From: Escherichia coli
Lineage (GTDB): Bacteria; Pseudomonadota; Gammaproteobacteria; Enterobacterales; Enterobacteriaceae
Length of the DNA stretch: 64,000 bases
Reading direction: 5' to 3' (one strand)
Assembly (NCBI RefSeq): GCF_001677475.2
Contig: NZ_CP015229.1
Positions 20,567-20,633 of the stretch are shown here, piece by piece; the first letter of the stretch is position 1, and the number at the start of each line of letters is the position of its first letter. Position numbers and translations under genes: made by a program. The notes under the pieces were generated by a model. That model saw nothing but the letters and a program-made list of their open reading frames with translations. It ran no database searches and was not told the origin of the DNA.

Positions 20567-20583
20567 TGGGGTCAGGGCACCAT

Positions 20584-20612
20584 AAAAAAACCGCCGAACA
20601 TGTCGGCGGCTT
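20584..20612 (-). terminator. Rho-independent terminator at the 3' end of the nuo operon, possibly bidirectional for yfbM
   Basis: GC-rich stem ccgccga/tcggcgg followed on the minus strand by a 7-nt U-tract (aaaaaaa on the plus strand); lies in the 67-bp gap between the yfbM and nuoN stops. Confidence 0.7.
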
Positions 20613-20633
20613 TCTGACTTACAAACTGACTGC

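Follow-up and report, generated by a model that had tools for sequence, protein, structure and literature searches.

Bidirectional intrinsic terminators are Rho-independent signals that are shared by convergent genes. At another scale, early comparisons of the K-12 and O157:H7 genomes reportedly described "K-islands", segments that are found in K-12 and are absent from other E. coli. The interval between yfbM and the 3' end of the nuo operon can be set beside both. In the RefSeq record of K-12 this interval measures 2,610 bp and holds yfbN (minus strand, 238 aa), yfbO (plus strand, 140 aa) and yfbP (plus strand, 282 aa). Here we analysed the corresponding interval in a 64,000-nucleotide stretch of E. 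coli DNA, which is called the window throughout. Our literature searches found no study of polymorphism between yfbM and nuoN.

In the window, yfbM is the final plus-strand gene ahead of the junction (stop codon 20564-20566) and converges on nuoN (stop codon 20634-20636), with 67 bp between the two stops (20567-20633). When the window was aligned with K-12, 2,561 bp of K-12 DNA (locus L001, 9440-12000) replaced 18 bp of the window (20568-20585), and the terminator adjoined nuoN in both. In addition, tblastn found no homologue of YfbN, YfbO, YfbP or of the products of two further open reading frames described below (orf191 and orf409) anywhere in the 64 kb of the window. The open reading frames, the alignment and the tblastn search therefore agree with an earlier reading made from the sequence only, which had placed the convergent stops 67 bp apart and had proposed that yfbN, yfbO and yfbP are gone. 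Its statement that K-12 has three extra genes at this place was confirmed in the RefSeq record, and the same 67-bp junction in K-12, the one observation it had named as contradicting it, was looked for in the alignment and was not there. Within the filler that follows the yfbM stop, positions 20568-20578 were found only in the empty allele, and the tail ACCAT (20579-20583) is the conserved tail of the nuo terminator, which several filled alleles retain as well. The features are collected in Table 1.

Table 1. Features at and near the yfbM-nuoN junction, in window positions.
Feature	Position	Strand	Basis
elaD (ElaD/SseL-family deubiquitinase, 407 aa)	17376-18599	+	
yfbK remnant	18670-18861	-	
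yfbM (167 aa, DUF1877)	20063-20566	+	Open reading frame; Pfam PF08974, E 1.7e-35; annotated yfbM in all matching E. coli records
Junction filler of the gene-free allele, TGGGGTCAGGGCACCAT, 17 nt	20567-20583	.	Junction comparison over 11 loci and terminator table
Intrinsic terminator of the nuo operon (predicted)	20584-20615	-	Folds; conservation of hairpin core and U tract
A7 run	20584-20590	+ (strand reading)	
Hairpin: stem CCGCCGA (20591-20597), loop ACATG (20598-20602), second arm TCGGCGG (20603-20609); then CTTTCT	20591-20609		
Spacer from nuoN stop codon to terminator hairpin, 18 nt	20616-20633	.	Sequence, aligned with other taxa
nuoN, last gene of the nuo operon	20634-22091	-	Open reading frame; 98.6% nucleotide identity to K-12 nuoN; named nuoN in matching records
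nuoG RNA motif (Rfam RF01748)	30826-30868	-	50.3 bits, E 1.2e-7

The sequence and the folds also bear out the description of the spacer as one hairpin with a GC stem and a T tract; all 7 bp of the stem pair perfectly. Read on the minus strand, the terminator runs GCCGCCGA-CAUGU-UCGGCGG and then U7 (20590-20584); on the plus strand the order is A7, hairpin, CUUUCU. Folding of the 67 nt in the nuoN sense gave -26.4 kcal/mol (z -4.8, with 0 of 200 shuffles as good), and folding in the yfbM sense gave -21.1 kcal/mol (z -2.9), with a tail that is just CUUUCU. The site thus combines the properties expected of an intrinsic terminator, namely a stable G+C-rich stem-loop, a U tract directly 3' of it, and a location 18 nt past the nuoN stop. 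The hairpin core and a run of six to eight T residues are kept in E. coli, E. albertii, E. whittamii, E. fergusonii, Superficieibacter and K. aerogenes, and the Salmonella copy has no T run. A simple consensus terminator scan returned 0 sites, at odds with the folds, presumably because the scan extends the stem through the A/U runs and in doing so uses up the U tract. Rfam gave chance-level matches and no family at the junction; the nuoG RNA motif is the sole Rfam family above threshold in the window. The 67-bp spacer is, as a prediction, essentially the Rho-independent terminator of the nuo operon. Since every allele has it next to nuoN, irrespective of what comes after, it would primarily be the nuo terminator, and the same hairpin may stop yfbM transcripts too, more weakly.

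In some other genomes this terminator is interrupted or accompanied by inserted elements. In E. coli B strains and strain 510016, ISEcB1 (IS3-family) interrupts the nuo terminator behind base five of the 5' stem arm, and the two hairpin arms are thereby separated (E. coli BLR(DE3), L026 5906-7416; also L004 and L027). In E. albertii TW07627 (L016 8505-9278), an IS200/IS605-type element with a Y1 transposase lies in the filler just 5' of the terminator A run. In Superficieibacter sp. BNK-5 (L021 7673-8000), a REP-like element in the gap between nuoN and the yfbN orthologue (yfbN') has a terminator-like hairpin on either side, both with a T run and with ATGG as the tail, an arrangement suggesting that the terminator was duplicated to flank an inserted repeat.

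The allele of the window is the majority form of this locus, and that of K-12 is a minority form. The contiguous junction of the window was found in 4,303 of 5,426 complete E. coli genomes (79%), and DNA of the K-12 insert in 1,015 of them (about 18-19%). The insert-carrying genomes divide by identity into 985 at 99% or above, 3 at 95-99%, 24 at 80-90% and 3 at 60-80%; the remaining genomes include IS insertions, for example an IS66-family element in yfbM. E. coli B has the empty allele, yet its nuoN and yfbM are 99.7% and 98.8% identical to those of K-12.

The expectation that the nuo 3' flank is a variable locus held well, as we found at least six structural alleles: besides the empty form there are at least five filled ones among E. 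coli and other Escherichia, and IS insertions occur in addition. Reading from yfbM on the plus strand to nuoN on the minus strand, allele 0 is empty (63-68 bp) and occurs in the window, in most E. coli, in E. whittamii, in a further Escherichia species (SCPM-O-B-8794) and in E. albertii. Allele 1 is the yfbN-yfbO-yfbP form of K-12 (2,610 bp), and allele 2 is yfbN-yfbO (1,681 bp; E. coli UID2309220013). Allele 3 is orf191-yfbN-yfbO (about 2,120 bp), seen in E. coli A16, where orf191 is truncated, and in the Escherichia sp. MOD1-EC7003 type; allele 4 is orf191-yfbN (1,580 bp), seen in E. coli 2013C-4282 and E. fergusonii; and allele 5 is yfbN-yfbO-orf409 (2,964 bp), seen in Escherichia sp. E2748. 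In complete E. coli genomes, orf191 was present in 14. Alleles 1, 2 and 5 are without positions 5-444 of the orf191-bearing form, and because an open reading frame that is intact elsewhere (orf191) thereby has its 5' part removed, these three alleles are deletion derivatives.

For the proteins encoded in this islet, Pfam gave UBA-like matches only for YfbN and TPR-like matches below its thresholds for YfbP. YfbO had no match in the Pfam copy searched, and precomputed annotation assigns it to PF27222 (YfbO). The NCBI name of the orf191 product is SMI1/KNR4, which our own Pfam scan does not confirm, and NCBIfam held nothing informative for the islet proteins. A role of the islet in poly-immunity was considered and dropped as unsupported, given the unconfirmed SMI1/KNR4 name and two distant members of the YfbN family that are stand-alone genes; one distant YfbN relative (L023) sits in a run of small same-strand genes. 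In a protein of 4,090 aa (P0173), the most conserved segment of YfbN (profile positions 70-124) was matched in 29 separate stretches, and the YfbN motif therefore also exists as a long tandem repeat. Two proposed relationships were rejected, as the proteins proved unrelated: orf409 of Escherichia sp. E2748 as a relative of YfbP, and orf173 of Superficieibacter as a relative of orf191 or YfbM. The yfbP gene is monomorphic in E. coli, its next relatives being in Leminorella (65%) and Superficieibacter (62%), and from these comparisons the K-12-type allele looks to have gained it late.

We compared the filled alleles with each other and with their flanks. The dN/dS values of 0.21-0.34 for yfbN and about 0.25-0.33 in most pairs for yfbO indicate that both are real coding genes under purifying selection. 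Divergence between filled alleles ranged from dS 0.12 to 0.82. Between K-12 and UID2309220013, dS was 0.44 in yfbN and only 0.045 and 0.095 in the flanking yfbM and nuoN; between K-12 and E. fergusonii it was 0.82 in yfbN and 0.31 in yfbM. The cassette itself is a mosaic, since the yfbO of UID2309220013 is nearly identical to that of the MOD1 type (dS 0.024) and its yfbN is not (dS 0.40). In addition, the allele of E. coli 2013C-4282 (L037 3501-5080) is 98.6% identical over 1,580 bp to that of E. fergusonii (L018), and the match includes a second terminator type, CCGCCGAAATCGGCGG; for scale, nuoN of K-12 and of E. fergusonii are 96.1% identical. This suggests a recent exchange between the two species at the locus. 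Taken together, the discordance with the flanks and the near-identical allele in E. coli and E. fergusonii lead us to infer that homologous recombination, acting through the conserved flanks, carries alleles from one strain or species to another. A flank haplotype tied to allele type was considered and rejected, as the clustering of yfbM and nuoN sequences follows the strain or species, whichever allele lies between them.

The boundaries of the inserts carry no insertion signature. The check suggested by the sequence-only reading, a search for direct repeats or target-site duplications flanking the extra genes of K-12, was run and these were absent; neither they nor terminal inverted repeats were found at the insert boundaries, where only short repeats at chance level occur. 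Pfam, PHROGs, PADLOC and NCBIfam gave no integrase, transposase or recombinase encoded in the K-12 insert. The inserts have a G+C content of 32-46% and the nuo genes of 55-60%, but composition does not single out the insert because the flanking elaD, yfbL and yfbM are likewise low (30-52%).

The proposal that the empty junction of the window is the ancestral state was not established, since the outgroups are split and insertion signatures are lacking, and at the level of the genus it is probably the less likely polarity. Our weighing of polarity was based on comparisons of the locus and its genes in the taxa that are named here. The outgroups are not uniformly empty: E. albertii, E. whittamii and one further Escherichia species are empty, and E. 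fergusonii, Escherichia sp. MOD1-EC7003, Escherichia sp. E2748, Superficieibacter and one K. aerogenes strain are filled. Salmonella is intermediate. In a Salmonella enterica contig (L038 8459-9346), nuoN and yfbK are separated by 889 bp, in which a yfbM (DUF1877) pseudogene (tblastn E 6e-20, residues 42-166) lies about 270 bp from nuoN, its 3' flank also starting with TGG; no trace of yfbN was found in this gap. Nor do the inserts appear young, judging by the dS range given above and the missing insertion signatures.

Immediately 3' of the nuo terminator, and with the same orientation as nuoN, there are yfbN orthologues in E. fergusonii (71% amino acid identity), in Superficieibacter sp. BNK-5 (46%) and in one K. 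aerogenes strain (46%). Superficieibacter electus has a yfbN orthologue too, on a contig that ends in a REP element before nuoN, and the gene neighbouring yfbN in S. electus is an orthologue of YfbP (62% identical over 278 aa). In all, two or three Superficieibacter species have yfbN at this position. A single putative ancestral order, rbn-cheV-yfbK-yfbL-yfbM-(orf191)-yfbN-nuoN, explains all the arrangements by losses alone. The empty junction, TGA-TGGTGTCAGGGCACCA(T)-A7-hairpin, is common to E. coli, E. whittamii and the SCPM-O-B-8794 species, with 1-3 substitutions between them, and so appears to have had a single origin. E. albertii, whose nuoN is the least similar among the Escherichia compared, is empty too; its 14-nt filler shows just a loose alignment (10 of 17 columns, by eye), and its emptiness could reflect the same event or a separate one. 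We infer from these comparisons that the null and the filled classes both predate E. coli.

We consider an old deletion the somewhat more likely origin of the empty allele. In such a history, orf191-yfbN (possibly with yfbO) would have been deleted once, long ago, in an event reaching from immediately past the yfbM stop to a point shortly ahead of the terminator's ATGGTG tail, and the null allele would then have risen to majority. The K-12 form would itself be derived, having lost the 5' part of orf191 and gained yfbP. The null allele of the window is one state of a small accessory islet that has many alleles and sits between yfbM and the nuo 3' end; strains and species would swap these alleles by homologous recombination in the flanks.

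The opposite polarity, in which the empty junction is ancestral in Escherichia and the filled alleles are later insertions beside the nuo terminator that spread by recombination, is possible in our estimation, if on the doubtful side. It would fit the shared junction in the empty Escherichia species and about 79% of E. coli, the Salmonella yfbM pseudogene that adjoins nuoN with no yfbN and a TGG at the start of its 3' flank, and the yfbP gene, which looks acquired with its nearest relatives outside E. coli. It would also fit the terminator hairpin, which attracts ISEcB1 and IS200-like insertions, and the low G+C content of the inserts relative to nuo, although this last point loses force because the flanking yfbL, yfbM and elaD are low as well. 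A further point for it is that the null filler holds no deletion scar. The 11-nt filler had no match at up to 2 mismatches in seven filled-allele sequences on both strands, and fillers of 11-19 nt, including the E. whittamii, SCPM and E. albertii variants, were unmatched as well (the 19-mer at best 12/19, equal to the shuffle mean); the microhomology that we considered, GCACAAT on the left and CACCAT on the right, is too short for testing. However, this polarity requires that in three genera a homologous yfbN gene landed at one and the same site, each time facing the same way, and it requires a cassette without mobility genes, inverted repeats or duplications to have done so. The dS of up to 0.8 between filled alleles, which equals or exceeds the between-species divergence in the flanks, argues against it as well. 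The occurrence of yfbN in several genera could nevertheless reflect transfer and not descent, because YfbN belongs to a wide family of 232 clusters at 50% identity, few K. aerogenes carry the gene, and alleles do cross species.

Going beyond polarity, one could regard the nuoN 3' flank as an old cargo-swapping site without mobility genes, where a small pool of rapidly evolving genes (yfbN, yfbO, yfbP, orf191 and orf409) persists as a presence/absence polymorphism across Escherichia, with a parallel in Superficieibacter, and is exchanged via nuoN and yfbM, perhaps under phage-linked selection. According to one preprint (bioRxiv 10.1101/2025.09.29.679331), K-12 knock-outs of yfbO or yfbL resist phage N4, and because of this report phage-linked maintenance might apply; another preprint has yfbN and yfbO among the hits of a retron toxin screen. 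We think this broader interpretation unlikely. If it were true, the null allele of the window would be more than a simple loss: it would be a functional variant.

Much less can be said for yfbNOP as a site-specific mobile element or genomic island that was excised in the window and left a 67-bp attachment site. The inserts do adjoin a hairpin that IS elements also target, and their G+C content is below that of nuo. Against this stand the missing integrase, transposase and recombinase genes and the terminal inverted or direct repeats that do not exceed chance. There is also no tRNA or tmRNA gene within the 64 kb of the window, and searches with PADLOC and PHROGs, for a defence or phage origin, gave no matches for YfbN, YfbO, YfbP, orf191 or YfbM. 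Moreover, the left ends vary among the filled alleles, and the junctions are without duplication, all of which makes such an element highly improbable. Finally, a recent deletion private to this strain, or a collapse in the assembly, has nothing in its favour beyond the bare absence of the genes and is ruled out by the identical junction, which recurs in other species and in complete genomes that are independent of each other and number in the thousands; the flanks, moreover, are colinear and show no break.

Other genes of the rbn-nuoN interval vary as well. The yfbK remnant of the window consists of about 40 bp of the 3' end and 132 bp of the 5' end around a 20-bp filler (18710-18729), with 1,556 bp of the K-12 gene gone; as the same junction is found in the window, E. 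coli B, 55989, O157:H7 and 118UI, it represents a common shared deletion allele. The elaD gene is intact in the window and absent from the B2-type strains examined, from E. albertii and from E. fergusonii, and is therefore another presence/absence polymorphism in this interval; yfbL is frameshifted in several strains. Thus elaD, yfbK and yfbL resemble the yfbM-nuoN interval in varying by presence or absence, but theirs are simple single-gene deletions or frameshifts, whereas the yfbM-nuoN interval swaps different cargo genes.

With regard to the strain itself, none of the 5,426 complete E. coli genomes exceeded about 98.5% identity to the window (12000-45000) over 24 kb of the nuo region, and the best identity over 12000-20600 was 98.2%. 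The substitutions in nuoN relative to K-12 are synonymous (dN 0, dS 0.057). The yfbL-yfbM segment is just 92% identical to K-12, which we ascribe to a divergent yfbL-yfbM haplotype of the window's own. From these identities, the lineage of the strain seems not to be represented among complete genomes.

Altogether, the feature seen in the window is ordinary strain-to-strain variation, the common null allele of a dispensable islet. For the window this has little significance, as it shows the majority form of that islet together with a standard operon terminator. More generally, expectations on yfbN, yfbO and yfbP that are based on K-12, including the reported role of yfbO in infection by phage N4, do not transfer to most E. 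coli. It also follows that an empty site should not be called ancestral from two genomes; here the outgroups disagree and alleles cross species.

Compared with known systems, the nuo terminator is like bidirectional intrinsic terminators in its G+C-rich stem of 7-8 bp, its 5-nt loop, the A run on one side and the T-rich stretch on the other, and its place between converging stops. Unlike symmetric terminators of this class, it is lopsided, with U7 toward nuoN and CUUUCU toward yfbM, as far as predicted termination is concerned. The interval as a whole is like the K-islands in being a short K-12 segment of genes of unknown function that is missing from most strains, has a G+C content below that of the core operon and ends in a clean junction. 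It differs from them in having at least six structural alleles and not two states, some of them common to other Escherichia species, and in that yfbN and yfbP of K-12 have orthologues in the same interval in another genus.
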